Positions 1 through 13,734 of a stretch of DNA of 54,452 nt are shown here, one piece after another. The DNA comes from Chlamydiota bacterium. Lineage in GTDB: Bacteria > Auribacterota > Tritonobacteria > UBA1439. Each line of letters starts with the position of its first letter. The first letter of the stretch is position 1. The position numbers were made by a program, and so were the translations under genes. The notes below the pieces were generated by a model, which searched no databases, had not been told where the DNA came from, and worked only from the letters and a program-made list of their open reading frames with translations. The stretch spans positions 1 to 54,452 of the forward strand of contig JBAXOY010000004.1 of NCBI GenBank assembly GCA_037133055.1, read 5' to 3'.

Positions 1-524
1 TGGTGCCCCTCGGCGCTCGACTTGAACTGGTCCCAGAGCTCGGGGGGCTGGTCCTGGTAGTTCCACCCGAACTGCTCGTCCCGGGGGGAGAAATAGCGCT
101 CCTTTGCGCGAATCCCGTGCTCGTCGCGGCGGATGCCGAGGAGGATCGCGTCGAGCTTCTCCCGGGCGATGAAAGCCTTCAGCGCCTGGGTCTTCTGGGC
201 GTGGCAACAGTCGAGCTTCGTCCCTCTGTCCGGCCCCATCCCCGCGGCGATCGCCTTCTCGTTCCGCGCGATTCTGAGATCGAGCCCCCACTCGCGCGCG
301 TACCGGTCCCTGAAGGCGTAAATCTCCCTGAACTTGCGGCCGGTGTCGATGTGGATGACCGGGAAGGGAATCTTCCCGAAAAACGCCTTGCGGCACATCC
401 AGAGGAGCGAGGTGGAGTCCTTCCCGATGGACCACAATATGCCGATGTTCCTGAACCTGCTGAAGGCCTCGCGCACCACGTAGATGGTCCTGCTCTCGAG
501 CTCTTTCAGATGATCCATGACCAT
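1..524 (-). CDS. cysD: Sulfate adenylyltransferase subunit 2 (PAPS-reductase family), 3'-partial at window edge
   Basis: Not in the ORF track; manually translated MVMDHLKELESRTIYVVREAF...WSIGKDS...PVIHIDTG...KTQALK...GIRRDE...RAKERYFSPRD...W..QPPELWDQF, all CysD hallmarks. Start is ATG 524 or 518. Confidence 0.92.
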   Translation of the reverse strand, partial: MVMDHLKELESRTIYVVREAFSRFRNIGILWSIGKDSTSLLWMCRKAFFGKIPFPVIHIDTGRKFREIYAFRDRYAREWGLDLRIARNEKAIAAGMGPDRGTKLDCCHAQKTQALKAFIAREKLDAILLGIRRDEHGIRAKERYFSPRDEQFGWNYQDQPPELWDQFKSSAEGH

Positions 525-558
525 GTTCCCCCGGGCCGTGAGTATGCCCGTTCGGAGG

Positions 559-1383
559 TCAGTACTCAATCCCCATCATTTTTCCGAGGGCCGCGCCGAA
601 GATCAATGCGAGCAGAAAATAGGCGACGCTCCAATGCAGGCGCATCCCCGCCATGCGGATCGTCCTGGAGGGATAGTCCACCCGCAGGACCGAGACCGGG
701 CTCCCCCGGCCGATCGTCTCCCCGCCGGGGAAGAGAAACGCCCGCCGCATCGAGGGCCTCGCGCTCTCGGGATAGATACACGCAACCCCCGCCCCGACCC
801 GGATATCCTTTTCGACCGCCGCGCCGTTCACCGTGACCGTGACCGCCTGCGCGCCCACACCGGTCGCCCGCACCCGCCAGTCTATCTCGCGGTCGCCGAT
901 ACGCACCGGGGACGTCTCCGTCTTCAGCCCGTCCGTCACAGCGAGAGCCGCGCGCGCGGTGCGGGTATCGGCACCCGGCCCGAGTTCGACCGACACGATC
1001 GACGCCTCGCCCGGCATAAGCGGGCGATGCGCGTACCGGAGATCGAGCTGCACGCAGACGAGCGCCACGGGCACGATCGCAACCGCGAGCGGCACCAGCG
1101 CCCGTCCCACATACCGCAGGGACTCTCCCCATACGCCCGCGAGCGAGGCGAGCATCGCGGCGGGCTCGTCACGATAGAGGTAGATGCCGAGGAGGTGCCC
1201 CTGGATGCGCTTCCGTGCCCGCCGTATCGCGTCCTGATCGGAGACGAGCCGGTACGCCAGGATGACTCCGGCCGCGGTGAGGAACGCGGCGAAGGCAAGC
1301 CCCCAGACCGGCGCCGCGTCCCTGAACGGGTACAGCAGGGCGTCGAAAAGCCGTGTGACGAGGCGACCGGCTGCGGAAATCAT
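559..1383 (-). CDS. Membrane protein, DUF106/EMC3-TMCO1 (Oxa1 superfamily)-like, with an inserted soluble beta-rich domain
   Basis: ATG 1383 overlaps the upstream stop (ATGA). TM1, then a charged amphipathic segment (SDQDAIRRARKRIQ), TM2 (LVPLAVAIVPVALV), a ~130 aa soluble region and a C-terminal TM (HWSVAYFLLALIFG..LGKMMG). The family call is from recall. Confidence 0.6.
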   Translation of the reverse strand: MISAAGRLVTRLFDALLYPFRDAAPVWGLAFAAFLTAAGVILAYRLVSDQDAIRRARKRIQGHLLGIYLYRDEPAAMLASLAGVWGESLRYVGRALVPLAVAIVPVALVCVQLDLRYAHRPLMPGEASIVSVELGPGADTRTARAALAVTDGLKTETSPVRIGDREIDWRVRATGVGAQAVTVTVNGAAVEKDIRVGAGVACIYPESARPSMRRAFLFPGGETIGRGSPVSVLRVDYPSRTIRMAGMRLHWSVAYFLLALIFGAALGKMMGIEY

Positions 1384-1568
1384 GAAAGATACCCGAGCCC
1401 CCTCAGTTTTTCCCTCACCTTCGCGGCGTCCTCGCCCGGGTCGATCCCCGCGACGGCCTTTTCGAGCAGGTGGGTGATCAACTCGTCCGCGCCCGGGTAG
1501 CCGGCCGCGGCTGCGCACCGCGCAAGTTTGTCGTACAGCTCCCCGTCGATCCGTATCTTCCTTGCCAT
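1380..1568 (-). CDS. Small ribbon-helix-helix (CopG)-like protein with C-terminal VREKLRGLGYLS motif
   Basis: GGGGAG RBS 6 nt before ATG 1568 (alternative start 1574); beta strand KIRID followed by two helices; stop coupled to the next gene. Confidence 0.8.
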   Translation of the reverse strand: MARKIRIDGELYDKLARCAAAAGYPGADELITHLLEKAVAGIDPGEDAAKVREKLRGLGYLS

Positions 1569-1632
1569 TGACATCTCCCCCCTCGCGTCACGGTTTCTTC
1601 GGGAATCTACGTGTCCTCCGTGGTGAAAAATC

Positions 1633-3630
1633 CTATTGCTCCCGCGGCAACGCCTGTTCCGCAGCGAAGATATTTTTCCCGATCATGTCCCCCGGCTTCG
1701 GTATCCCGAACTCCGCGAGGATGGTCGGGGCGAGGTCGTAGAGGTGCGGCGCGTCCATGACGATCTTCCGGCTCGCGAACAGGACGCCGGGGACAAGCTC
1801 CGTCGCCCCGCAGTGGTCCCCGCTCCACTTCTCGGCGCTCACCTCCAGAAGTTCACCGGTCACGTCCCCGAGCGCGCTTTTCCACGACGTCCGGTACCCC
1901 CAGTCGTAGCCGACGATAAGGTCGGGGGCCCTTGAGATATACTCGCCCGAATACACCTCGTCGGCCCTGTAGACCCGCTTCACCACCGTGCGCCCGTTCT
2001 CCGGGTCCCGCTCCGCCGCGAGCTTTCCCGCGATCTCCCTCAGCAGGGCGTCCCGCGCCGCCCCGGGCTCCACGATCCCGTCGCGCTCCCTCCCGCGGAG
2101 GTTGACGTAGAGGGAGTTCAGTCCGAGCGCGTAGGCGCGCGTATTCCGCCAGTCCACATCCTTCAATGCGCCCGTTCCGGCTCCGCCTTCCAGGACGAGA
2201 TAGCCGTTGCGGGCAAGCCACGTGTTGAGGCTGAACGCTTTGTAGAACGGCCCGAAACCGTGGTCGGACATGACGATGAGCGTCGCCCGGTCGTTTAGCG
2301 TCGCCATAACCTTGCCTGCCGCGGCGTCCATCTCCGCGTAGGTCCCCTCGATCACGTCGCCGAGGCGCAGGCGCGCCGCCGGGTCGTAGACAGGGTGCTT
2401 CGGGTCGCGCAGGTGCCAGAAGATGTGCGTCCCCAGATCGGTGCTCGAGAAGTAGTAAAAGAGAAGCCCGTCGCGGAATCGCCCCCGCGCGTAATCGAAG
2501 AGGCGGTTGTTCTCGTCGAGGACCATCCGGAACTGCCGGTAGAACTCGTCGATGGTGAAGGTGTTGTTGGTGAGCGTCTTCGTGTTCTCCGGCATCCCCT
2601 GCGTGTAGAAATACCCCGCGGCGTCCGCCACCTCGCGCGCGTACCCGCGGGGGGTGTCGATGGGGAGCGCCGGGGCTTTCGGGTCGATGTTGACCGGCGT
2701 CACGTAGAGCTTAAAATGGGGATGCGCTTCCTTAAGGTAGAGCCGGCAGATCCCGTTCACGGGGGGGAGGATCGGCAGGGGCCTGAACCCGAGCACGATC
2801 CAGTCGCTCCACTCGCCCTGATTGAGGATCAATTTCTTTCCCGCGATGTCGATGCGCGCGACCGGGTTCTCCGGGTCGATCCACGCCGTGAACGGCACCG
2901 TGAGGCGGGGCGAATCCTTCCGGTAGGTGTTCGCGGGCCCCGAGATCGCGGCGCGGACCGCCCCTCCGGCGGGCTCCACGAGCGTGAATTCCGCGCCCGA
3001 CGGGTCCTTCGGGATATCGCCTGGGTCGGTCGTAAAAAACTGGTAGATGCCGTAGGTGCCCATCAGGTCGGGGGTCCCCATCCCGGAGATGCTCCGGGAG
3101 CGGCCCGGCACGGGTGGAAAATTGGACGGAATCCTGAAGATCGTGGCCGGGATCCCGTTCTCGTCGAGATATTCCCAGAACGCCTTCCCCTCCCGCTTCA
3201 GAACCACGGTGCCCCCGGAGACCGGCAGCACATAGCCGCCCATCGCGAGCGTCCGGCGCGGGGGGATGGTCTCGGAGGTGGAGAGGTACGGCAGGTACGT
3301 GGCCGGGTCCCGGTGGATGAAATCGAATAGTGCGTGCCCTCCGGGGTTTTTGCCCGTGATAAAGTTGGACCACGCGACGGGACTCTGCGGCGGAACGCTC
3401 GACAGGAGTTCCTTGAAATCGCCCTTCTCCGCGAGGCGCTTCAGGTTCGGGAGCCCGCCCTTCGCGAACATCTCCCGGACGATCCTCGGGTCCATGCCGT
3501 CGAAGGCGAGCACGACGACCCTCTTCCCCGCGGCGCGGTCGGCCCGGCCGCAGCCGGAGGCGAGAAGCGCGGCCGAGAGGGCCGCGGCCATCCCGGGGAT
3601 CCACCCGTTTCGCCCCGCGCGCGGCTTCAT
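1633..3630 (-). CDS. AlkP-superfamily phosphohydrolase/transferase (type I phosphodiesterase/nucleotide pyrophosphatase-like), predicted lipoprotein
   Basis: Lipobox LLASG-C; VLAFDG, PPQSPVAW (Ser nucleophile), D..TH, SDHGF and WSGDH metal-site motifs. Confidence 0.88.
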   Translation of the reverse strand: MKPRAGRNGWIPGMAAALSAALLASGCGRADRAAGKRVVVLAFDGMDPRIVREMFAKGGLPNLKRLAEKGDFKELLSSVPPQSPVAWSNFITGKNPGGHALFDFIHRDPATYLPYLSTSETIPPRRTLAMGGYVLPVSGGTVVLKREGKAFWEYLDENGIPATIFRIPSNFPPVPGRSRSISGMGTPDLMGTYGIYQFFTTDPGDIPKDPSGAEFTLVEPAGGAVRAAISGPANTYRKDSPRLTVPFTAWIDPENPVARIDIAGKKLILNQGEWSDWIVLGFRPLPILPPVNGICRLYLKEAHPHFKLYVTPVNIDPKAPALPIDTPRGYAREVADAAGYFYTQGMPENTKTLTNNTFTIDEFYRQFRMVLDENNRLFDYARGRFRDGLLFYYFSSTDLGTHIFWHLRDPKHPVYDPAARLRLGDVIEGTYAEMDAAAGKVMATLNDRATLIVMSDHGFGPFYKAFSLNTWLARNGYLVLEGGAGTGALKDVDWRNTRAYALGLNSLYVNLRGRERDGIVEPGAARDALLREIAGKLAAERDPENGRTVVKRVYRADEVYSGEYISRAPDLIVGYDWGYRTSWKSALGDVTGELLEVSAEKWSGDHCGATELVPGVLFASRKIVMDAPHLYDLAPTILAEFGIPKPGDMIGKNIFAAEQALPREQ

Positions 3631-5795
3631 GAACGCACCCCGCGTTCCACAACGACCCCGAGCGGCCTGCCGTCTATGAAGGCGGGGGGCGCGATGCCGA
3701 AGAGTCCGAGCACCGTCGGGGCGATATCCTGTATATGCGGATCCTTCACTTTGACGCTTTTACTGCAGAAGAAGACCCCCGGGACAAACCGGTGGTCGAT
3801 GCAGTGGTCGGCGCTCCACGCCCTGTTGTTGTCGGAGAACACCGCCGTGGTGATCTTCCCGGTGACCGAGTCCCACGAGCACCGGTACCCCGGACGGTAC
3901 CCGACGATCAGGTCCGGGCCGTTTTCGATGTAGGGGCCGGAGTAGACGACGGCGGTGTCGTACACGGCCGCGATCGCCGTGTCGCCGCCCTCCTCGTCCC
4001 TGAGCCCCGTGAGCTTCCCCGCGAGCTCCCGTTTCAGCGTGACCGCCTCCGCCGGGGACACCGTGCCCCGCGCCTCACGCCCCTTCAGGTTCAGGTAGAT
4101 GCCGGAGAGGCCGAATCCGTAGGCCCTCGTCTTCTCCCAATCGACCCCCTCGAACCATTCCCCGCACATGGATGCGCCGCCCTTGAGCGCCAGATAACCG
4201 TTTTGAAAAAGCCAGTTGTTCAGGTTCACCCCGCGGCGGAAGAGCGTGAACCCGTGGTCTGAAAGGACCATCATGAGATCCCCGGGCCCGAGCTCCGCCC
4301 GCACCCTCCCGACAAGCCCGTCCATTTTCCGGTAGAGATCCTCAATGACGGGGGGACCGGGGGGCGCCTGTCTCCCCTTCCGCGCGGGCTGGTCCCCGCT
4401 CATCGCGCGCCAGAACTCGTGCTGGACGGCGTCGGTGGTGTCGAAGACGCAGCAGAGCACCCCCTTCCGCAGCCGCCGGAGGGAGTGAAAGAATATCTCT
4501 TCGAGTCTCCCCTGTATGCGGTATGCCTGCGTGAGAAACGCCTCGTCGGTGAGTACGCCTTCGTTGAGCGCCCAGGTGTCCTGCGGGAGCCCGAGCGTGG
4601 CGAAGGGGCCGAGGATCTTGGCGAGATGCACGGAAAAGATGCGCGGATGCGATATCGGGAGCGAAGGGTGCTCCGGATCGATGTTGACGGGCGACAGGTA
4701 GAGCTCAAGGTGCGGCGCAACGCGCTTGAGAAAGAATTGCGCGATACCGCGGACTCTCGTCCCGAGCGGGGCGCGGAAGACGAGAGGGATCCAGTCCGAG
4801 AGCTCGCCCTCCGCGAGCGCATAGCTCCTTCCGGCGACTTTCAGCTTCACCGCCCCGCGCTCCAGATCCACCGCGATCATCAGCGGGATCTTCAGGTCGC
4901 CGCACCTCCCGAAGGGATCCTCCGGGCCGGAGATATCGGTCGCGTAGACGGGGCCCTCCCCCGAAAGCTGCACGCGGCAGCCTCCGGTGAGCGCCCCCTC
5001 ATCGCCGGGCTTCGAGGTGTAGAAGGCGAACGTCCCCTGCGACCCCTTGAGATCCGGGGTGCAGAGGCCCGAGAGGAGCATGCCCCTGAACCGGTCCGGG
5101 GGAAAGGTGATCGGGACCTTGAGTATGACGCTTGGGACACCGTGCTCCCCGAGTATCCTCCAGAACGGCACCCCCTTCCGGAACAGGGCGATCCTCGGTT
5201 TCCCGAACGGTATACGGAGCCCGCCGAGGCGGAACCGCCTTCGGGGCGGGGAGATCGAGGCCGAAGAGAGCGCGGGGAGGCAGGTGCGCGGGTCGCGCTT
5301 CAGGAAGTCGAATATGTTGTGCTTTCCGGGATTCGAACCGGTGATGAACGAAGACCAGGCGACGGGGGATATCGGCGGGTTGGAGGTGCGAAGCGGCGAA
5401 AAGCACCCCTCGGCGGCGAGCGCCGAAAAGTTGGGCAGCTTTCCCTCCCTCATCCACCCTGAGGCGAGTTCCGGGTCGAGGCCGTCGAGCCCCACGATCA
5501 CCAGGCGGCGGACCGCCGCGCGGCGCAGCGCCTTCCTGCCGCGCAGCCGCGCGATGACGAGCCGCGCGGGGAAAGTGAGCAGCGCGACGACCGCCAGGAG
5601 CATCCCCCCGAGGATGGACAGGAAGGAGCCGAGAAACGCGAAGCCCGCGCCGGGGCCTATGTAGGCATGCGCGGCCGAGGGGATCGCGACGAGGATCGCG
5701 GCCGCCGCCGCGGCAAGGTTCCGGCCCCGGGAGCCCGCCTCCGTTCCTCCCCTCATCCCTCCCCGCGGCCTTCGCCCCCCCGTGGTGAACGTCAT
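3627..5795 (-). CDS. AlkP-superfamily phosphohydrolase/transferase paralog with signal peptide, YIGPG motif and TM anchor
   Basis: IVGLDGLD, PPISPVAW, D.VQH, SDHGF and WSADH motifs. Start uncertain (ATG 5795 or 5756; the track uses TTG 5816). Confidence 0.87.
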   Translation of the reverse strand: MTFTTGGRRPRGGMRGGTEAGSRGRNLAAAAAAILVAIPSAAHAYIGPGAGFAFLGSFLSILGGMLLAVVALLTFPARLVIARLRGRKALRRAAVRRLVIVGLDGLDPELASGWMREGKLPNFSALAAEGCFSPLRTSNPPISPVAWSSFITGSNPGKHNIFDFLKRDPRTCLPALSSASISPPRRRFRLGGLRIPFGKPRIALFRKGVPFWRILGEHGVPSVILKVPITFPPDRFRGMLLSGLCTPDLKGSQGTFAFYTSKPGDEGALTGGCRVQLSGEGPVYATDISGPEDPFGRCGDLKIPLMIAVDLERGAVKLKVAGRSYALAEGELSDWIPLVFRAPLGTRVRGIAQFFLKRVAPHLELYLSPVNIDPEHPSLPISHPRIFSVHLAKILGPFATLGLPQDTWALNEGVLTDEAFLTQAYRIQGRLEEIFFHSLRRLRKGVLCCVFDTTDAVQHEFWRAMSGDQPARKGRQAPPGPPVIEDLYRKMDGLVGRVRAELGPGDLMMVLSDHGFTLFRRGVNLNNWLFQNGYLALKGGASMCGEWFEGVDWEKTRAYGFGLSGIYLNLKGREARGTVSPAEAVTLKRELAGKLTGLRDEEGGDTAIAAVYDTAVVYSGPYIENGPDLIVGYRPGYRCSWDSVTGKITTAVFSDNNRAWSADHCIDHRFVPGVFFCSKSVKVKDPHIQDIAPTVLGLFGIAPPAFIDGRPLGVVVERGVRS

Positions 5796-5808
5796 GCCCC
5801 CCGCCAGC

Positions 5809-7176
5809 CTACACAATGCCGTATTTCTTCAGTTTGTACCACAGGTTCCGCTCGCTGATCCCCAAAAGCTTCGACGCGCGGGCCTTCACCCCGTCCGCCT
5901 CGCGGAGCGCCTTCTCGATCATGGTTTTTTCGAGCGAGGCGACCGCCCCGTCGAGGCCGGCCGGATCCCCCACGGCGGAATCCGGGTGCGCGATCGGAAA
6001 ACCGTGGACGATCTCGGGGGGGAGATCCTCCATGCCGATCCGCCCCGTGCTGCTCACCGCCACCGCCCGCTCGATGACATTCTCCATCTCCCGGACGTTG
6101 CCGGGCCACGCATAGGCGGCGAGCGCCCGCAGCACCTCTTCCGGGGGCGGCGCGACCTCCTTCCCCCACTCCCGAGAGTATTTCCGCGTGAAATGCTCGA
6201 CGAGCGGGGGGATGTCCCCGGTCCGTTCGCGGAGCGGGGGGACCATGACATTCACGACATTCAGGCGGTAGTAGAGGTCCTCGCGGAAGGCGCGCTCCCG
6301 GATCATCGCGCGGAGGTCTCGGTTGGTGGCGGCGATGACGCGCACGTTGACGCCGACCGTCTCGTTGCTCCCCACCTTCTCGAACTCCTTTTCCTGCAGG
6401 ACGCGGAGTATCTTCGCCTGGAGCGCGGGCTCCATGTCACCGGTCTCGTCGAAGAAGATGCTGCCCCCGTCCGCCTTCTCGAACCTTCCCTGCCGCTCGA
6501 CGTGCGCCCCCGTAAACGCCCCGCGGACGTGGCCGAAAAGCTCGCTCTCGAGGAGGGGGGTGGGGATCGCCGCGCAATTGACCGCCACGAAGAGCCGCTC
6601 GCGGCGCGGGCTCTTCGCGTGGATCGAGCGCGCGAGGAGCTCCTTCCCGGTGCCGGTCTCGCCGCAGAGCAGGACCGAAGCGTCCGTAAGGGCGACGCGG
6701 TCGATCATGGAGTAAATCTCCCGCATCTTCGCGCTCGCGCCGATGATCTCCTGGACCTCGCGGGCCCGGGTGAGCTCCTCCCTCAGGTAGATGTTCTCCC
6801 GCTTCACCTTCTCCAGTTCGAAGACCCTGGAGATGACCACCTCCATGCTCTCGACGTCGAACGGCTTGAGGACGAAATCGCTCGCCCCTTGCCGCATCGC
6901 CTCGACGGCGCTTTTGATGGTCCCGTAGGCGGTCATGATAACCACGGGAGTCCGGAGCTCCCTGCGCCGCATCTCTCTGAGCAGGTCGATCCCGCTCATG
7001 CCTCCCGGCATCTTGAGATCGGTCAGCACGAGGTCCACGCGCTTCGCCTGAATGATCGCGAGCGCCTGCGCGGCGCTGTCGGCCTGGAGCGGCTCGTAGC
7101 CGATCCGGTCCAGCATCATCTCCGCCAGCCTGAGCATGTTACGCTCGTCGTCCACCACCAGCACCCGCCGTTTCAT
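5809..7176 (-). CDS. Sigma-54-dependent response regulator (NtrC/AtoC family)
   Basis: REC domain (VVDDE, DLKMP, KP), Walker A GETGTGKE, GAFTGA, FREDLYYRLNV, C-terminal Fis HTH. Confidence 0.96.
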   Translation of the reverse strand: MKRRVLVVDDERNMLRLAEMMLDRIGYEPLQADSAAQALAIIQAKRVDLVLTDLKMPGGMSGIDLLREMRRRELRTPVVIMTAYGTIKSAVEAMRQGASDFVLKPFDVESMEVVISRVFELEKVKRENIYLREELTRAREVQEIIGASAKMREIYSMIDRVALTDASVLLCGETGTGKELLARSIHAKSPRRERLFVAVNCAAIPTPLLESELFGHVRGAFTGAHVERQGRFEKADGGSIFFDETGDMEPALQAKILRVLQEKEFEKVGSNETVGVNVRVIAATNRDLRAMIRERAFREDLYYRLNVVNVMVPPLRERTGDIPPLVEHFTRKYSREWGKEVAPPPEEVLRALAAYAWPGNVREMENVIERAVAVSSTGRIGMEDLPPEIVHGFPIAHPDSAVGDPAGLDGAVASLEKTMIEKALREADGVKARASKLLGISERNLWYKLKKYGIV

Positions 7177-7181
7177 ATGGA

Positions 7182-7223
7182 CCGTCCCGACTCCCGTCTC
7201 CCATCTTACCGCTTACAACTTAC
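7182..7223. repeat. 7-nt periodic degenerate tandem tract
   Basis: ccgtccc gactccc gtctccc atcttac cgcttac aacttac fills the kinase-regulator spacer. Confidence 0.7.
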
Positions 7224-9299
7224 TCACGCCGCCGGCAGCACCACCGTGAATGTGGTGCCCTTGCCCGGCGCGCTGTTCACCTCGACCCTTCCCTTGTGTG
7301 CCTCCACGATCCGGTACACGATGGAGAGCCCGAGTCCCGACCCGTCATCCTTTGTCGTGAAGAACGGGTCGAAGATATGGTCGAGGTTCTTCTCGTCGAT
7401 GCCCCCGCCTGTGTCGCCCACGCTCGCGAAGACCGTCTCGCCCTCTCCCTCCCCCGTGGCGAGGGAGAGCCTCCCGCCCCCGGCCATCGACTGGACCGCG
7501 TTCAAAATAAGATTCAGGAACACCTGGCAGAGCTGCTCGCGGTCGCCGCGCGCCCTCGGGATCTCCTTCGCGTAGTCCCGCGATATCTCGATGTCCTGGA
7601 GGCGGTGCTGGGGGCCCACCAGGGCGAGGGCCCAGTCCAGTGTCTCCCCGAGTTCGCACGGCTCGCTCTTCGGCGCGGAGGGCCGCGCGAAGTCGAGGAG
7701 CCGCGTGACCACCCGGTTCAGGCGGTCGACCTCCTCCATCATAAACCCGGCGAGCTCGTGATTCTGCTCGCCCTCGCGGCTGCTCCGCTTGATCATGTCC
7801 GCAGACGTCTTCATGATCCCGAGCGGATTGCGTATCTCGTGCGCGACGCCCGCGGCGAGCGTGCCGATCCCCGCGAGCTTCGCGGACTGGAACAGCTTGT
7901 GCTCGAGCGCCCTCCTCTCGCTGATATCCTTGGCGTATTCGATCACGTGCGTCACCCGGCCCCCCTCCTCGAGGAGGGGGAAGCTGTAGACCTCCATCTC
8001 CCTCTCCTTCTGCCCCGGAACGCTCCAGCGAAGCTCTCCCGACGAGGCCGCTCCGCAACGGAAGGTGTTCTCGGCAGGGCAGTTCGGGCATGGCGCGTCG
8101 CCGCCGTGATAGGCGCGATAGCAGGCGTCTCCGATGAGTTCCGCCTCGCCGCGACCCACCATCGCGGCGATCCCGGCATTGGCGTTGACGATGCGGTACT
8201 CCCGGTCGATCACGGAAATGCCGTCCGAGATGCCGTTGAAGAGCCTCCGGAGCCGCTGGTTCGACCCCTCGAGCTCACGGGTGCGGTCCCGCACCCGCTC
8301 TTCGAGCTCTCGGTAGTACGATCCAAGCCTCTCGGCCATGATGTTGAACCGGTCGGCGAGGTCCTGGAGCTCGTCGCCCGTATCGAGGGACATCCGGTGA
8401 TCGAAGTTCCCCTCCCCGATGAGCCGCGCGCCGCGGTCAAGTTCGAGTATCGGCCGCGAGAACGACCGCGAGAGGTAGAGCGCCAGCACCAGCCCGCACG
8501 CGAGGACGATCACTCCGCCGACGAGGCTGATTTTTTCCGCCTGCCGGTCGGCGAGGGTGGCCGTCTCCACCGCGAGGAGGCCCTCGCTCTGGGCGAGCTC
8601 ATGGAGCTCCGCGATTCCCTCCATGGCGCGGTCCTTCGCCTCGATGAGCTGGAGCGAGAGCTGCTTCAGTCGCGACTCGGACTCGGAGATGGTCCGGCTG
8701 AGGACCTCGAGCTCCGCCAGGCGCTCCTGGGCGTCGCGCGTGCTCACGCCGAGGATGCTCCCGAGCACCGCTAGCTCCCGCGCCGGATTCTCCCCCTTCC
8801 CCGCCTTCCCCTTCGTGTCGATGACGCCTTTCACCGTCGCGGCGACGTCCTGGATGAGGCGATGCCCCTGGACTTTCTCGATCTTGTCCGCGAGGGCGAG
8901 GAGCTCGCGGGAGCTCCGGTCGACCGTGGCGAACTTGGCCTTGAGCTCGGCGATCTTCTTCCGCTCCCGGTCGTCGACGGCCCCCTTCCCCGCCGGGCCC
9001 CGCCGGCAGGACTCCTCGAGGGCATCGAGGTCCTTCTTGTAGAAGAGCACGAGCTGGGTGAAGGTCGCCCGGCGCGCCTTCTTGCCGGAGACCATGTACT
9101 CGCCGAGCGCCGTGACCGCCCGGTCGAGCGTCATCTGGAGGTCCGTGATGAGGCCCTCCTTCTCCTGGACGTAGACGAGCCGGCGGGTGCCGTCGGCCAT
9201 GATGCGGATGGACACGAGCGTGAAGAGGAGGAGCGCGCTGATGAGCGCGACCATCGCCATGAAGCTGGCGAGTATCTTGGACTGGATTCTGATCCGCAT
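7224..9299 (-). CDS. Sensor histidine kinase (TM-helical sensor-TM-HAMP-PAS-HisKA-HATPase)
   Basis: AHEIRNPL H-box, NLILNA N-box, DTGGG, FDPFFTTK, GSGLGL. Confidence 0.95.
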   Translation of the reverse strand: MRIRIQSKILASFMAMVALISALLLFTLVSIRIMADGTRRLVYVQEKEGLITDLQMTLDRAVTALGEYMVSGKKARRATFTQLVLFYKKDLDALEESCRRGPAGKGAVDDRERKKIAELKAKFATVDRSSRELLALADKIEKVQGHRLIQDVAATVKGVIDTKGKAGKGENPARELAVLGSILGVSTRDAQERLAELEVLSRTISESESRLKQLSLQLIEAKDRAMEGIAELHELAQSEGLLAVETATLADRQAEKISLVGGVIVLACGLVLALYLSRSFSRPILELDRGARLIGEGNFDHRMSLDTGDELQDLADRFNIMAERLGSYYRELEERVRDRTRELEGSNQRLRRLFNGISDGISVIDREYRIVNANAGIAAMVGRGEAELIGDACYRAYHGGDAPCPNCPAENTFRCGAASSGELRWSVPGQKEREMEVYSFPLLEEGGRVTHVIEYAKDISERRALEHKLFQSAKLAGIGTLAAGVAHEIRNPLGIMKTSADMIKRSSREGEQNHELAGFMMEEVDRLNRVVTRLLDFARPSAPKSEPCELGETLDWALALVGPQHRLQDIEISRDYAKEIPRARGDREQLCQVFLNLILNAVQSMAGGGRLSLATGEGEGETVFASVGDTGGGIDEKNLDHIFDPFFTTKDDGSGLGLSIVYRIVEAHKGRVEVNSAPGKGTTFTVVLPAA

Positions 9300-9326: not shown

Positions 9327-11156
9327 CTACTCGACCGTGACGCTCTTCGCCAGGTTCTTGGGCTTGTCGATGTCGCAACCCCTGAAGCGGGCGATGTGGT
9401 ACGCCAGGAGCTGGAGGGGGACCACGTTGACGATCGGCGACAGCTCCTCCCGCGTCTCCGGGACGTAGATCACATCCTCCGCGATCTCCTTCAGGGCGGC
9501 GTCCCCCTCCGTGGCGAGGGCGATGATCCTGCCCCCGCGCGCCTCCACCTCCTTCATATTGGAGATCATCTTAGCATATTTCTCCCCCTTCGTGCAGATG
9601 CAGACGACGGGGAACTCACGGTCGATGAGGGCGATCGGCCCGTGCTTCATCTCGCCCGCCGGGTACCCTTCGGCGTGCAGGTAGGAGATCTCCTTCAGCT
9701 TCAGCGCCCCCTCGAGCGCGGTCGGGTAGTTGAACCCGCGCCCGAGAAAGAATGCGCTCTTCGCCCCCGCGTATTTCGGCGCGAATTCCCGTATCTGCGC
9801 CTCCGCGCGGAGCGCGCGCTCGATCTTCCCCGGCAGCGTCTCGAGCTCCGCGAGGATCCGGCGCGCCTCTTCGGGGGATATCTGGCCCCTGATCCTTCCC
9901 GCGTGGACGGTGAAGAGGACGAGGGCGACAAGCTGGGCGGTGTAGGCCTTGGTGGAGGCGACGCCGATCTCGGGCCCCGCCCGGGTGTAGATGACCCCGT
10001 CGCTCTCGCGGTCGATAGTGCTTCCCATGACGTTCACCACGGAGATGATCCTGCATCCCTTCTCCCTGGCCATCCGGAGGCTCGCGAGCGTGTCGGCGGT
10101 TTCCCCGGACTGGCTCACCGTCATCACCAAGGTGTTCCGGTCGAGCTTGGGGCTGCGGTACCGGAACTCGCTTGAGTAATCGACCTCGACCGCGAGGTCG
10201 GTGTAGTGCTCGAGGAAGTAGCGCCCCCCCATGCCGGCGTAGCAGGCGGTGCCGCACGAGATGATGAACACCTTGGTGAGCGCCCGGATGCTCTCCTCGC
10301 CGATGCGGGGGAGATCGAGCGCGACGCCGGTCCTGTCGGGGAGGATCCTCCCGATCAGGGCGTTCCTCAGGGCCTCGGGCTGTTCATAAATCTCCTTCAG
10401 CATGAACTTTTCGAAGCCGCCCTTCTCCGCCTGTTCCAGCGTCCATTCAATCCGGTGCGGGGTGTGGGAAACGGGCGCGAGGGCGCTGTCAAAGACCTCG
10501 ACCGAACCGCGGGTGACCCGGGCAAGCTCGCCGTCGTTCAGGTAGATGACGCGGTCGGTGTACTCGAGGATCGCCGGGACGTCGGAGGCGATGAACTGCT
10601 CCCCCTTCCCGAGCCCGATAATCAGGGGACTCGCCTTGCGCGCGGCCACGATCTCGTCGGGCCGCTCCTCGGAAATGACGGCGATGGCGTAGGCGCCCTC
10701 CGCCTCCGCCACGGCGCCCCGGACGGCCTCGAGAAGATCCCCGGAGTAATGCTTCTCTATGAGGTGGACGAGGACCTCGCTGTCGGTCTCCGAGCTGAAG
10801 CGGTGCCCCTCGGCCGCGAGCGCCGCTCTCAGGCCCGCGTAATTCTCGATGATGCCGTTGTGCACCATGGCAAAACGCCCGGTGCAGTCGGTGTGCGGAT
10901 GCGCGTTCGGGGTGTCGGGCTCGCCATGCGTCGCCCATCGGGTGTGTCCCACCCCCGTGTGCCCGCGGAGGGGGGACGCCGCGAGGAGTTCCGCGAGACC
11001 CGCAAGCTTCCCCTCTTTCTTGCGGACGGAGATCTTCCCGCGGTCGATGATCGCGACTCCCGCCGAATCATACCCGCGGTACTCGAGCCGGAAGAGCCCC
11101 TTCAGGATGACTTCCTGCGCGTCCCTTCCGCCGATGTAGCCGACGATGCCGCACAT
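9327..11156 (-). CDS. glmS: Glutamine--fructose-6-phosphate aminotransferase
   Basis: MCGIVG, LEYRGYDSAG, GHTRWATHG, SQSGETADT, C-terminal NLAKSVTVE. Confidence 0.98.
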   Translation of the reverse strand: MCGIVGYIGGRDAQEVILKGLFRLEYRGYDSAGVAIIDRGKISVRKKEGKLAGLAELLAASPLRGHTGVGHTRWATHGEPDTPNAHPHTDCTGRFAMVHNGIIENYAGLRAALAAEGHRFSSETDSEVLVHLIEKHYSGDLLEAVRGAVAEAEGAYAIAVISEERPDEIVAARKASPLIIGLGKGEQFIASDVPAILEYTDRVIYLNDGELARVTRGSVEVFDSALAPVSHTPHRIEWTLEQAEKGGFEKFMLKEIYEQPEALRNALIGRILPDRTGVALDLPRIGEESIRALTKVFIISCGTACYAGMGGRYFLEHYTDLAVEVDYSSEFRYRSPKLDRNTLVMTVSQSGETADTLASLRMAREKGCRIISVVNVMGSTIDRESDGVIYTRAGPEIGVASTKAYTAQLVALVLFTVHAGRIRGQISPEEARRILAELETLPGKIERALRAEAQIREFAPKYAGAKSAFFLGRGFNYPTALEGALKLKEISYLHAEGYPAGEMKHGPIALIDREFPVVCICTKGEKYAKMISNMKEVEARGGRIIALATEGDAALKEIAEDVIYVPETREELSPIVNVVPLQLLAYHIARFRGCDIDKPKNLAKSVTVE

Positions 11157-11165
11157 GGTGCTCCC

Positions 11166-12356
11166 TCATTCCCCGCGCCGGAGCCCCGACCCCGGCGCCG
11201 CGTACGCGACCTCGCCGCCGATGATTGTCGTCCGGACGCCGAACTTCTCGTCGAAGATCACGATGTCCGCGTCCATCCCCGGCGCGAGCGCGCCCTTCCG
11301 CGCGTCGATTCCCGCCAGCCGCGCCGGGTTCGACGTCGCGAGCGCCGCGACGTCCGCCGGAGGCGCCCCGGTCCATTGCCGGACGTTGCGGAGCGCCCCG
11401 CTCATCGTCAACACCGAGCCGCAGAGGGTGCCGTCTTCCAGCACCGGTGTGCCGCCGCGGATGGTGACCTCTTTCCCGCCGACGCGAAAGGCGTGGGTCT
11501 CCGCGTCGAGCGCCTGCATGCAGTCCGTGACCAGAATAATGCCATCCCGCCCCTTGAGTTTCAAAGCCATTTTCACCATCTCCGGGTGCACGTGCATGCC
11601 GTCCGCGATGAGCTCCGCGACGACCCGGACGTTCGCCAGGGCCGCCGCGGCGAGCCCGGGGCGGCGGTGGTGCATGCCGCTCATGGCGTTGAAGAGGTGC
11701 GTCACGGAGCGTACCCCGGCCCCGAACGCCTCGCACGCCTCCCTGTAGCTCGCATCGGAATGCCCGGCGGCCGGGATGCCGCCGCGCGCCGCGATTGCCT
11801 CGATGAGCCCCCGCGCGCCGGGGAGCTCGGGGGCCAGCGTGACGATCATGGGGCAGCCGTCCGCGGGCGCCATGAGCGCGCCGAGCTCGTCCGGGTCCGG
11901 CAGCCGCAGGTGCTCGACCGGGTGCACGCCCGCGCGCGCGGGATTGAGGAACGGCCCCTCGATGTGGATCCCGACAATCCCCCCGGCCTTCCCGCTCCTG
12001 ATCATGTCCCCGAGGCACGCGACCGCGCGCCTCATTGTTTCCCCCGGGGCGCTCCTCACCGTGGCGAAGAGCGCCGTGGTGCCGTAGCGGGCGTGGGTCG
12101 CCGCGATCTCCCGCGCGTCGCCGGCATCGCCCGAAAGAAAGTCCGCCCCCGAGGCCCCGTGCGCGTGGAGGTCGATGAACCCCGGGCCGACGCAGCAGCC
12201 CCCGGCGTCGATCATCCGCCCTCCGCGGGGGCGCTCCCCGGTGGATTTCCCCGCATACACGATCGTGCTGCCGCGGACGACGACCACGGAGTCCGGTATC
12301 TCGCTCCCGCGGTGAATCAGGCGGCCGTGTATGATCGTGAGTGTCGGGTCATTCAG
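11166..12356 (-). CDS. nagA: N-acetylglucosamine-6-phosphate deacetylase (start anomalous)
   Basis: PGFIDLHAHG, HIEGPFLN, HLFNAM, DGMH, LVTD. NagA-like residues continue upstream of GTG 12287 to CTG 12356. Confidence 0.9.
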   Translation of the reverse strand: MNDPTLTIIHGRLIHRGSEIPDSVVVVRGSTIVYAGKSTGERPRGGRMIDAGGCCVGPGFIDLHAHGASGADFLSGDAGDAREIAATHARYGTTALFATVRSAPGETMRRAVACLGDMIRSGKAGGIVGIHIEGPFLNPARAGVHPVEHLRLPDPDELGALMAPADGCPMIVTLAPELPGARGLIEAIAARGGIPAAGHSDASYREACEAFGAGVRSVTHLFNAMSGMHHRRPGLAAAALANVRVVAELIADGMHVHPEMVKMALKLKGRDGIILVTDCMQALDAETHAFRVGGKEVTIRGGTPVLEDGTLCGSVLTMSGALRNVRQWTGAPPADVAALATSNPARLAGIDARKGALAPGMDADIVIFDEKFGVRTTIIGGEVAYAAPGSGLRRGE

Positions 12357-12381: not shown

Positions 12382-13734
12382 TCACCGCATGCAGGCGGTC
12401 GCACCCATCCGGCGCATCACGTCTCCCACAAGGTAGATCGAGCCGGTGACGAATATCCCGTCCGCCGCGCCCTCCTCCACCGCCCGGCGGGCCCGCCCGA
12501 GCGCCGCGCCCGGGTCCGCCGCCGTTTCCGCCCGCGTCCCCGCCCGCGCCCGCCAGGCCGCCGCGAGCGCGCCCGGGTCCGCGGATCGGCCGCTCGGCAC
12601 CGGCGTCACGAACACCGCCGATGCGAGGGGGCCGAGTGCTTCGCAGATTCCCCCGGCGTCCTTGTCCTCGAGCGCGCCGAGGACGAGCGCCCACCTCAGT
12701 CCGGGGAAGAGCGCGGCGACGGCGCCCGCCGCCGCGCGCGCGCCGTCTGGATTGTGCGCGCAGTCGACGAGGGTGAGCGGGGCGCGGCTCAGGATCTCCA
12801 TCCTCCCCGGCCACCGGACTCCCGCGATCCCGCGGACCATGGCGGCGTCATCGATCGCGGCGCCGCGCCCCCGCAGCTCATCGACCACCCCGCACGCGAC
12901 CGCGCAGTTCGCGGCCTGATGGCGCCCGGCGAGCGGGACGGTGAGTGGCCCGAGGGGGCCGCGCGTCCCCCTCACCTCGAGCACGGTTCTCCCGGGGTCC
13001 TCGCGCAGGATCGAATAGAGTATAGCATCCCCCACGCGGAGCACGGTAGCCCGCTTTTCCGAGGCCCGCCGCATGATCGTCTCGAACGCCTCGTCGGGCA
13101 TCTCGCCGCAGACGACCGACGCCCCCTCCGCGATGATCCCCGCCTTTTCCGCGGCGATCGCCGCGATCGTATCGCCGAGCACCGCCGTGTGCTCAAGCCC
13201 TATCGAGGTAATCGCGGCGACGGGCGCCCCGGACGCCGTCGTGGCGTCAAGCCGCCCCCCGAGCCCGGTTTCGATCACGGCGAAATCCGCTCCCTGCCGC
13301 ACAAAATGGAGAAAGGCCATAGCGGTCATGAATTCGAAATACGTGGGCGGCCCCACGGGGCCCGTCGCGACCCTTTCCGCGACCGGGATGAGTGCGGCCG
13401 CGAGCGAGTCCGCCTCCTCCTCCCCCACCGGCTCGCCGCAAAGCCTGATCCGCTCCCTGAACGTGACGAGGTGGGGCGAGGTGTAGAGCCCCGTGCGGAA
13501 GCCGGCCGCGCGCAGCACGGACTCGACCATCGCGCATACTGACCCCTTCCCGTTGGTGCCGGCGACCTGGATGAAGGAGAGTGACCGCTGCGGGTCGCCG
13601 CAGCCGCCGAGGAGGAGTCGAATGCGATCGAGCCCCGGCCGCATGCCGAAGCGCTCGAGGCGCGAGAGGTACGCCTCGCAGACGCCGCGGGCGGGCCTGC
13701 CCGGCGACGGAGAGGTGGGGGCGGGGGCGCTCAC
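12382..13734 (-). CDS. folC: Folylpolyglutamate synthase/dihydrofolate synthase
   Basis: VAGTNGKGS, YTSPHL, ETGLGGRLDAT, WPGR, DCAHN, TGSIYLVG. GTG 13734 overlaps the accD stop; conserved accD-folC order. Confidence 0.95.
   Translation of the reverse strand: MSAPAPTSPSPGRPARGVCEAYLSRLERFGMRPGLDRIRLLLGGCGDPQRSLSFIQVAGTNGKGSVCAMVESVLRAAGFRTGLYTSPHLVTFRERIRLCGEPVGEEEADSLAAALIPVAERVATGPVGPPTYFEFMTAMAFLHFVRQGADFAVIETGLGGRLDATTASGAPVAAITSIGLEHTAVLGDTIAAIAAEKAGIIAEGASVVCGEMPDEAFETIMRRASEKRATVLRVGDAILYSILREDPGRTVLEVRGTRGPLGPLTVPLAGRHQAANCAVACGVVDELRGRGAAIDDAAMVRGIAGVRWPGRMEILSRAPLTLVDCAHNPDGARAAAGAVAALFPGLRWALVLGALEDKDAGGICEALGPLASAVFVTPVPSGRSADPGALAAAWRARAGTRAETAADPGAALGRARRAVEEGAADGIFVTGSIYLVGDVMRRMGATACMR

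Follow-up and report, generated by a model that had tools for sequence, protein, structure and literature searches.

Here we describe a gene cassette encoding two paralogous enzymes of the alkaline phosphatase (AlkP) superfamily, a small tagged protein and an Oxa1-like membrane protein, located at the left end of contig JBAXOY010000004.1 (C4 below; 54,452 nucleotides, analyzed whole and called the window) of the Chlamydiota bacterium assembly GCA_037133055.1, which GTDB places in the Auribacterota (Tritonobacteria; UBA1439). This four-gene cassette is widespread and undescribed, with no characterized member, and it is genetically tied to activated sulfate. With slightly better than even confidence, we read it as a dedicated, non-assimilatory cassette linked to sulfation at the cell envelope. 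In the window, the cassette genes and the 5′ part of cysD lie in bases 1-5816 as five co-directional genes, in order of transcription:

3627-5795/5816, minus strand: AlkP1; the ATG at 5795, used by the gene callers of the public collection, gives 722 aa
1633-3630, minus strand: AlkP2, 665 aa, PF01663, NPP-type alkaline-phosphatase fold, predicted to be exported (lipobox LASGC)
1380-1574, minus strand: mini-protein, weakly ribbon-helix-helix (RHH)-like and LGY-tagged, 64 aa (62 aa if the start is the ATG at 1568)
559-1383, minus strand: membrane protein, DUF106/Oxa1-like with an immunoglobulin (Ig)-like beta-sandwich, 274 aa from the ATG at 1383
3-524, minus strand: 5′ part of cysD (sulfate adenylyltransferase small subunit), matched by NF003587 and Pfam PAPS_reduct

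AlkP1 and AlkP2 overlapped in an ATGA at 3627-3630, as did the mini-protein stop and the membrane-gene ATG at 1380-1383, so the coordinates bear out the five co-directional genes and two ATGA overlaps described in an earlier, sequence-only reading of this DNA. That reading had also recognized a pair of paralogous serine-nucleophile AlkPs that are not classical sulfatases, an "Oxa1-like" membrane protein and cysD, and these identities stood up to the profile searches given below. A 319-aa open reading frame (ORF) for the membrane protein, starting at GTG 1518, was rejected as over-extended, orthologues being ~274 aa long. The start of cysD was placed at the ATG at 524 or 518 by alignment with CysD of the two closest loci (L001 and L002), which puts it 35-41 nt past the membrane-gene stop, without overlap. 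Since the window is the whole of C4, the contig start cuts this gene, and it is incomplete.

An AlkP2 scan of one genome per species recovered 77 loci, comprising 1.15 Mb in all. The complete cassette (AlkP1, AlkP2, mini-protein and membrane protein) was present in 52, with the order seen in the window retained in 48 of these, which argues that the arrangement is not due to chance. The remaining loci were mostly on truncated contigs, and an AlkP2-type gene stood alone in seven. The closest loci belonged to metagenome-assembled genomes (MAGs) labeled Ca. Tritonobacter, Ca. Euphemobacter and 'PVC group', while others carried the labels Planctomycetota, Verrucomicrobiota, Nitrospirota, Acidobacteriota, Bacteroidota, Myxococcota/Deltaproteobacteria, KSB1, WOR-3, Eisenbacteria, Sumerlaeota, Krumholzibacteriota, Gemmatimonadota and Dadabacteria, among others, for a total of a dozen or more phylum labels. 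None of the four cassette proteins was named in the public collection, and we found no published account of the cassette in the accessible parts of the literature on its protein families or on Auribacterota. In particular, the passages available from the paper in which the closest relatives were named (PMC9324843) say nothing of CysD, sulfotransferases or alkaline phosphatases in Auribacterota.

The connection to sulfate was apparent from the gene neighborhoods. Among the 77 loci, Sat, adenosine 5′-phosphosulfate (APS) kinase or CysD was encoded in 12, a small sulfotransferase homologue in 25, and either of these in 37. The sulfotransferase gene came directly after the membrane gene in 15 loci found by clustering, and a PF00884 protein was encoded in 25 of the 77. 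Moreover, the sole APS kinase match of the genome adjoined the cassette in all five genomes tested (2.2-6.8 Mb). Genes for sulfate activation and for sulfotransferases are therefore strongly enriched around AlkP pairs of this type, as the sequence-only reading had anticipated for activation.

The fragment of cysD scored 216.6 bits against NCBIfam NF003587, above the curated cut-off of 195, and the full-length CysD of L001 scored 331.2 bits. In L001 and L002, cysD is followed by cysN and then by a gene for a third, short AlkP. Correspondingly, the end of another contig of our genome, C7, encoded residues 93-411 of CysN followed by a complete short AlkP (433 aa, PF01663), in an orientation compatible with a join to C4. 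The truncated cysN fragment reached 235.8 bits, under the TIGR02034 cut-off of 336.1, while its L001 orthologue scored 337.9, just above it. Beyond the short AlkP gene on C7 is a convergent beta-propeller gene, so the operon would end there. By synteny, we thus reconstruct a putative seven-gene operon comprising AlkP1, AlkP2, the LGY mini-protein, the DUF106-like membrane protein, CysD, CysN and the short AlkP. Large PQQ/BamB-like beta-propeller proteins flanked the operon in L001 (3396-7409) as well as on our C7 (L078, 5946-7568 and 11392-13467).

No contig from four DNA sequencing runs was long enough to cover the whole stretch. One from run X2 extended 785 nt beyond the left end of the window, and short contigs from runs X3 and X5, which belong to two further studies, bridged the junction between cysD and the membrane gene at identities of at least 99%. 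Separately, ~240 nt within AlkP2 (2855-3097) were matched alone by contigs of X2, X3 and X5, which come from different studies and whose sequence to the left and right of the match is unlike the window but common to all three; this part of AlkP2 is thus present in another genomic context at an identity of at least 95%.

The source genome, a MAG of 191 contigs with 92.2% completeness and 0.7% contamination, had no match for APS kinase, Sat, an NIR_SIR sulfite reductase or CysH, and cysD was its sole PAPS_reduct-family gene. Given these absences, sulfur assimilation is unlikely, in agreement with the sequence-only reading; rather than cysH or cysI, it is cysN and the third AlkP that follow cysD, by synteny.

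It is this short AlkP, located outside the window, and not the AlkP pair, that is most tightly associated with sulfate activation. Of the 21 short AlkPs in the genome loci, 13 had an activation gene no more than 500 nt away. As an independent test, metagenome contigs were scanned with the short AlkP only, using an alignment of nine sequences. This yielded 80 loci with flanks of up to 5 kb, 52 of which contained an activation gene and 11 of which contained cassette genes. Forty-three loci had at least 2.5 kb of upstream sequence; a same-strand activation gene occurred within 3 kb in 34 of them, and was directly adjacent in 27 (CysN in 10, CysD in 10 and APS kinase in 7). Two loci encoded fusions of Sat and the short AlkP (L017, 5156-7789; L064, 13988-16624), 877-878 aa in length with PUA_2, ATP-sulfurylase and PF01663 domains. 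The Sat-type short AlkPs form a subtype that was absent from the CysDN-type clusters, a distribution that would fit removal of pyrophosphate beside Sat. The short AlkPs next to CysN, however, were orthologous to those following APS kinases (38-42% identity). Because one orthologue comes after CysN in this genome and after APS kinase in others, its role probably concerns the 5′-phosphosulfate that APS shares with 3′-phosphoadenosine 5′-phosphosulfate (PAPS), and not 3′-phosphoadenosine 5′-phosphate (PAP). A PAP phosphatase was considered for the short AlkP and rejected, as the same orthologue is present in clusters that make only APS.

In metagenome loci such as L103, L110, L117, L122, L126, L133, L139 and L143, short CysD-like proteins were encoded directly upstream of the short AlkP. 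These were of two subtypes, having either ...YRSLGCMPCT... or ...SDIPAWEQDLENT... ahead of the tail, and all ended in LR.LGY[MF]. No CysN was detected near them at the threshold used, and they may represent a CysN-independent relative of CysD.

All three AlkPs matched Pfam PF01663 (cut-off 23 bits), at 94.9 bits for AlkP1, 110.4 for AlkP2 and 137.5 for the short AlkP, while the Pfam scan gave no PF00884 match in AlkP1 or AlkP2. These two were 40.9% identical across 623 aa. Their nucleophile motifs, PPISPVAW at residue 147 of AlkP1 and PPQSPVAW at residue 80 of AlkP2, contain an invariant serine at the aligned nucleophile position (S150 and S83, corresponding to S57 in the short AlkP). The CxPxR formylglycine motif was absent from both sequences, and an SPPRR at residue 189 of AlkP1 was single, non-conserved and distant from the nucleophile. 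Formylglycine sulfatases were thus ruled out, the motif being missing and PF00884 unmatched. Residues D111, S150, H466, D520, H521, D670 and H671 were invariant among 45 orthologues of AlkP1, as were D44, S83, D398, H402, D456, H457 and H606 among 52 orthologues of AlkP2. Because the residues of the metal site and the serine are invariant, both proteins look like active enzymes. The DG and SDHG blocks aligned in the profile to the nucleotide pyrophosphatase/phosphodiesterase (NPP) of Xanthomonas (Xac NPP), and we take the ligands to be divided between the two metals by analogy with known NPPs.

The AlphaFold2 (AF2) model of AlkP2 had a predicted local distance difference test (pLDDT) value of 92.4. 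Its top Foldseek matches were Xanthomonas NPP (E=2.5e-11), ENPP1/3, PhnA and PafA, at ~12% identity and a TM-score by target of ~0.6, and the matches also included the lipid-active ENPP6 and ENPP7. A profile search against the Protein Data Bank (PDB) found the same NPPs weakly by sequence (E ~1e-4). Profiles were needed for this, as single-sequence phmmer searches of the PDB with AlkP2 and with the membrane protein returned nothing useful. The AlkP2 core is interrupted by a beta-rich insertion of ~200 aa. By homology, these are serine-nucleophile, two-metal, NPP-type enzymes, a variant of the NPP/PhnA clade and not typical members of it.

The two paralogs are predicted to reside on opposite sides of the membrane. 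In AlkP1, a YIGPGAGF transmembrane (TM) anchor was conserved in 44 of 45 orthologues, often with a signal-like segment ahead of it, and in every case a basic stretch came next (median of 7 K/R versus 1 D/E in the 25 residues past the anchor). As the anchor precedes this basic stretch, the catalytic domain is predicted to lie on the cytoplasmic face. AlkP2, by comparison, is predicted to be exported, its orthologues having lipobox, Tat or Sec signals, with the lipobox LASGC in the window's copy. The short AlkPs were mostly without a signal. Phylogenetic analysis of 131 sequences resolved AlkP1 (48 sequences) and AlkP2 (64 sequences) as separate clades, with support of 0.98 and 0.99, respectively, and the duplication that separated them is therefore old.

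The membrane protein was modeled by AF2 with a mean pLDDT of 96.5 over its 274 aa. Its helices (25-47, 50-69, 74-117 and 251-269) give a layout of TM1, coiled coil, TM2, Ig-like beta-sandwich and TM3. In a profile of 46 orthologues, positions 4-118 matched the archaeal protein MJ0480 (5c8j) with an E-value of 2e-7; Pfam DUF106 itself had no match at E<=0.01. The profile match supports a probable relationship to the DUF106/Oxa1 superfamily, with an extra domain. From the distribution of charge (+4.4 net for the coiled coil, -1.8 for the beta domain), the coiled coil is predicted to be inside and the beta-sandwich outside. The family is large: at 50% identity, a threshold of E<=1e-3 gives 3689 representatives and one of E<=1e-30 gives 1415, and nearly all of the members listed were ~274 aa long.

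Across 55 orthologues of the mini-protein, G23, E29, E36, G57, L58 and Y60 were invariant, and the C-terminus consisted of an acidic linker followed by a [KR]LxGLGY[IL]x tag. There was no Pfam match. Its profile gave weak RHH matches in the PDB (1y9b, E=0.008; NikR, E=0.056), and nearby atlas clusters bear the automatic name CopG family. Of the 934 ORFs in the genome loci, 40 ended in the LGY motif, namely mini-proteins, PF00884 proteins, five of seven APS kinases, CysD of L001 and L002, and a few short AlkPs. Among the metagenome loci, the tag was likewise present on 14 of the 15 APS kinases and 34 of the 35 CysD-type proteins encoded beside a short AlkP. The LGY-tagged PF00884 proteins had 5-7 TM helices or export signals, and CxPSR occurred in none of 14, versus four untagged proteins with CxPSR. 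Judging by these features, they look like transferases of the LtaS/EptA type, in which case the tag would be periplasmic. The tag is thus found on cytoplasmic as well as exported proteins, and in this respect resembles the paralogous AlkPs.

In our own genome, a six-frame search for the strict motif gave six occurrences, three of them at ORF ends, specifically those of the mini-protein and of two neighboring ORFs on contig C74. The latter comprise an ABC-type ATPase (PF00005; 12111-12929, minus strand; L079, 6111-6929) that ends in ...DRLRALGYIA, and a short, Cys-containing ORF ending at 12968 (minus strand) with ...RLKALGYL. Both are outside the operon and adjoin an ACT-HAD protein. Because these two ORFs end in the strict tag, the LGY clientele in this genome may extend past the sulfate enzymes.

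Complex prediction was performed with three chains, AlkP1 (residues 98-729), the membrane protein and, as partner, the mini-protein. The score was 0.38, versus 0.00 for the best of three controls, and the control in which AlkP1 was replaced likewise scored 0.00. Of 80 solved complexes, 58 reached the mark for this score, as did 2 of 110 mismatched pairs; a score of 0.60 or less while passing the mark was seen in 7 of the 80 solved complexes and in both of the passing mismatches. At least 92% of contacts agreed between runs, and partner pLDDT was at least 74. The models hint that the mini-protein may dock on AlkP1.

Upstream of AlkP1, the window continues with the following genes:

5809-7176, minus strand: sigma-54-dependent response regulator (Pfam Response_reg, Sigma54_activat and HTH_8)
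7224-9299, minus strand: HAMP-PAS sensor histidine kinase (Pfam HAMP, PAS, HisKA and HATPase_c)
9327-12287, minus strand: glmS-like and nagA-like genes of amino-sugar metabolism, identified from translations, just upstream of the kinase

The response regulator and kinase (5809-9299) end ~13-50 nt ahead of AlkP1, in the region 5757-5808, and the AlkP genes may be co-transcribed with these two-component regulators. The sigma-54 response regulator is a possible regulator of the cassette. A scan for the sigma-54 promoter consensus returned 25 matches (up to two mismatches) in the window versus 34.6 expected, with none upstream of AlkP1. These kinase and regulator families recurred near AlkP genes in few loci only (L002, L006, L071 and L073).

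The working that we propose begins with CysDN, which by homology would make APS from sulfate. The short cytoplasmic AlkP, whose gene in metagenomes almost always comes after the last gene for sulfate activation, would then consume the sulfonucleotide, this being APS here and PAPS where APS kinase is present. AlkP1 at the inner face and AlkP2 at the outer face would act on the same kind of membrane-bound phospho- or sulfo-ester intermediate, each possibly by way of a serine-linked covalent intermediate at its two-metal site. The Oxa1-like protein could connect the two faces as a carrier or flippase, or alternatively insert the AlkP1 anchor, and the product would be a sulfated or phospho-sulfated envelope component. 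Finally, the LGY tag might dock its bearers (the mini-protein, APS kinases, CysD-type proteins and LtaS-like enzymes) onto the AlkPs of the same side. A bolder version specifies a PAPS-independent, trans-membrane sulfuryl relay, in which the short AlkP and then AlkP1 use APS from CysDN, via a sulfo-serine or phosphosulfate intermediate, to load a membrane carrier at the inner face, the Oxa1-like protein moves this carrier through the membrane, and AlkP2 and LGY-tagged LtaS-like enzymes sulfate periplasmic envelope targets. We consider this version improbable.

Several observations weigh against a sulfation-linked envelope cassette. No sulfate-related genes were found in the fetched flanks of 34 of the 77 loci, and cysD adjoined the cassette in only three, so that the adjacency seen in the window is lineage-specific. 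Accordingly, what endures of the sulfate module proposed by the sequence-only reading is the genetic tie to activated sulfate, while the place that it gave to cysD beside the AlkP pair does not generalize, the short AlkP being the closer partner. The active site is like that of phosphodiesterases and pyrophosphatases, whose attack is on phosphorus and not on sulfur, and the operon encodes no acceptor, lipid carrier or glycosyltransferase. The join of C4 to C7 is drawn from the synteny of L001 and L002 and not from sequence, and the gene absences are provisional, as the genome is a MAG in 191 contigs. Moreover, this genome encodes one Sulfotransfer_3 protein (C17, 23414-24082, minus strand; L080, 5219-6139) for which the source of PAPS is unexplained; its gene adjoins those of an NAD-dependent epimerase/dehydratase and a DUF4915 protein, a sugar-nucleotide context. 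As for the other components, Foldseek with the whole membrane-protein model listed only Ig-like domains (E ~1e-3 or weaker) and no Oxa1-type structures, the complex score was a weak pass, and canonical CysD (1zun) ends in ...KKRQGY, so the CysD "tag" may be a trait of that family.

The main alternative is an explanation in which the cassette is independent of sulfate. Here, AlkP1 and AlkP2 would act like LtaS/EptA or ENPP6/7 and transfer or cleave phospho-headgroups on membrane lipids or lipid-linked glycans in both leaflets, while PAPS-dependent sulfotransferases make the sulfate esters and the short AlkPs service activation by hydrolyzing pyrophosphate or APS, PAPS or PAP, thereby pulling the pathway forward or tuning it. 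The lipid-active ENPP6 and ENPP7 among the structural matches are in keeping with this, as are the conventional sulfotransferases that come after the cassette in 25 of 77 loci, the LGY-tagged LtaS/EptA-like PF00884 proteins that accompany it, and the GT2 plus DUF2304, GT4 and methyltransferase genes present at some loci. The Sat-associated short AlkPs are also in line with it, in that Sat needs its pyrophosphate removed and the subtype is missing from the GTP-driven CysDN clusters. Nevertheless, a genome with CysDN but no APS kinase would leave the PAPS-dependent route without a donor, the orthology of short AlkPs beside CysN and beside APS kinases means that a PAP-phosphatase role would not be common to both, and hydrolysis of APS would amount to a futile cycle. 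Overall we judge this explanation unlikely, though to be taken seriously.

Two further explanations carry much less weight with us. It is very doubtful that the substrate is the LGY tyrosine, which would be sulfated, phosphorylated or nucleotidylated on the tagged proteins, with AlkPs on each side of the membrane writing or erasing this modification. Such a scheme would account for the invariance of G57, L58 and Y60 behind an acidic linker in 55 mini-proteins, for the match between a tag on cytoplasmic and exported proteins and a pair of paralogous AlkPs, and for adjacent sulfotransferases of the Sulfotransfer_3/_1 type. However, it is without precedent, canonical CysD has a similar GY end with no such system known, and a docking role is simpler and is weakly favored by the complex prediction. 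Most improbable of all is nutrient acquisition, whereby the AlkPs scavenge as phosphodiesterases or phosphatases, cysD is assimilatory and their adjacency is incidental. PF01663 enzymes are indeed often secreted scavengers, AlkP2 is predicted to be exported, and a two-component system is located upstream, but AlkP1 and the short AlkP are predicted to be cytoplasmic, and CysH, sulfite reductase and APS kinase were not found in the 92%-complete genome. Likewise, conservation of the four-gene order in 48 of 52 complete loci, the lone APS kinase beside the cassette in five of five genomes, and the Sat-AlkP fusions all speak against an incidental association.

Returning to the envelope cassette that we favor, its parts have recognizable relatives. 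The NPPs (Xanthomonas NPP, 2gsn/7mw8/7n1s; ENPP1/3/5/6/7) and PhnA share with the AlkPs PF01663 membership, the best structural matches, the metal-site motifs DG, D..H, SDHG and H, and the position of the nucleophile. In NPP and PhnA this nucleophile is a threonine. The cassette AlkPs differ from them in their serine nucleophile, ~12% identity and ~200-aa beta-rich insertion, in being a pair predicted on opposite faces accompanied by a third, cytoplasmic member, and in their genetic tie to sulfate activation. LtaS, EptA and OpgB (PF00884, without formylglycine) act at the outer face, where they decorate envelope polymers through a covalent Ser/Thr intermediate, and provide a working analogy for AlkP2; LGY-tagged proteins of this type co-occur with the cassette. 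Unlike these, AlkP1 and AlkP2 belong to PF01663 and have no polytopic membrane domain, and one of the two is predicted to face the cytoplasm. The membrane protein has the TM1, positive coiled coil, TM2 and TM3 of archaeal DUF106/Ylp1 (MJ0480) and the Oxa1 superfamily (EMC3, GET1, TMCO1 and YidC), but it is bacterial, contains an Ig-like domain of ~130 aa between TM2 and TM3, and is always encoded with the AlkPs.

The bacterial sulfation routes described so far employ CysDN/CysC or Sat/CysC together with cytoplasmic PAPS-dependent sulfotransferases such as NodH, Stf0 and RaxST. The loci examined here resemble these routes in that activation genes are clustered with modification genes, including the small sulfotransferase after the cassette, whereas the operon in the window differs in residing in a genome without a detected APS kinase, in having AlkP-fold enzymes as constant partners, and in its predicted distribution over both sides of the membrane. 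To our knowledge, all described biological sulfation is carried out by cytoplasmic or Golgi PAPS-dependent sulfotransferases, and the cassette thus bears on whether and how bacteria sulfate molecules outside the cytoplasm.

The cassette supplies a concrete set of proteins with which to approach this question, namely three AlkP paralogs with predicted locations, a bacterial relative of the Oxa1 superfamily and a shared C-terminal tag. If true, the sulfuryl relay would be the first extracytoplasmic sulfation pathway and its enzymes the first sulfotransferases of the alkaline-phosphatase fold, and it would give an Oxa1-family protein a role other than that of an insertase. Should the group transferred be phospho- and not sulfo-, the genes would still define a new envelope-modification machine together with a new protein-docking code. 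As it stands, the cassette points toward an undescribed kind of sulfur chemistry in the envelope.

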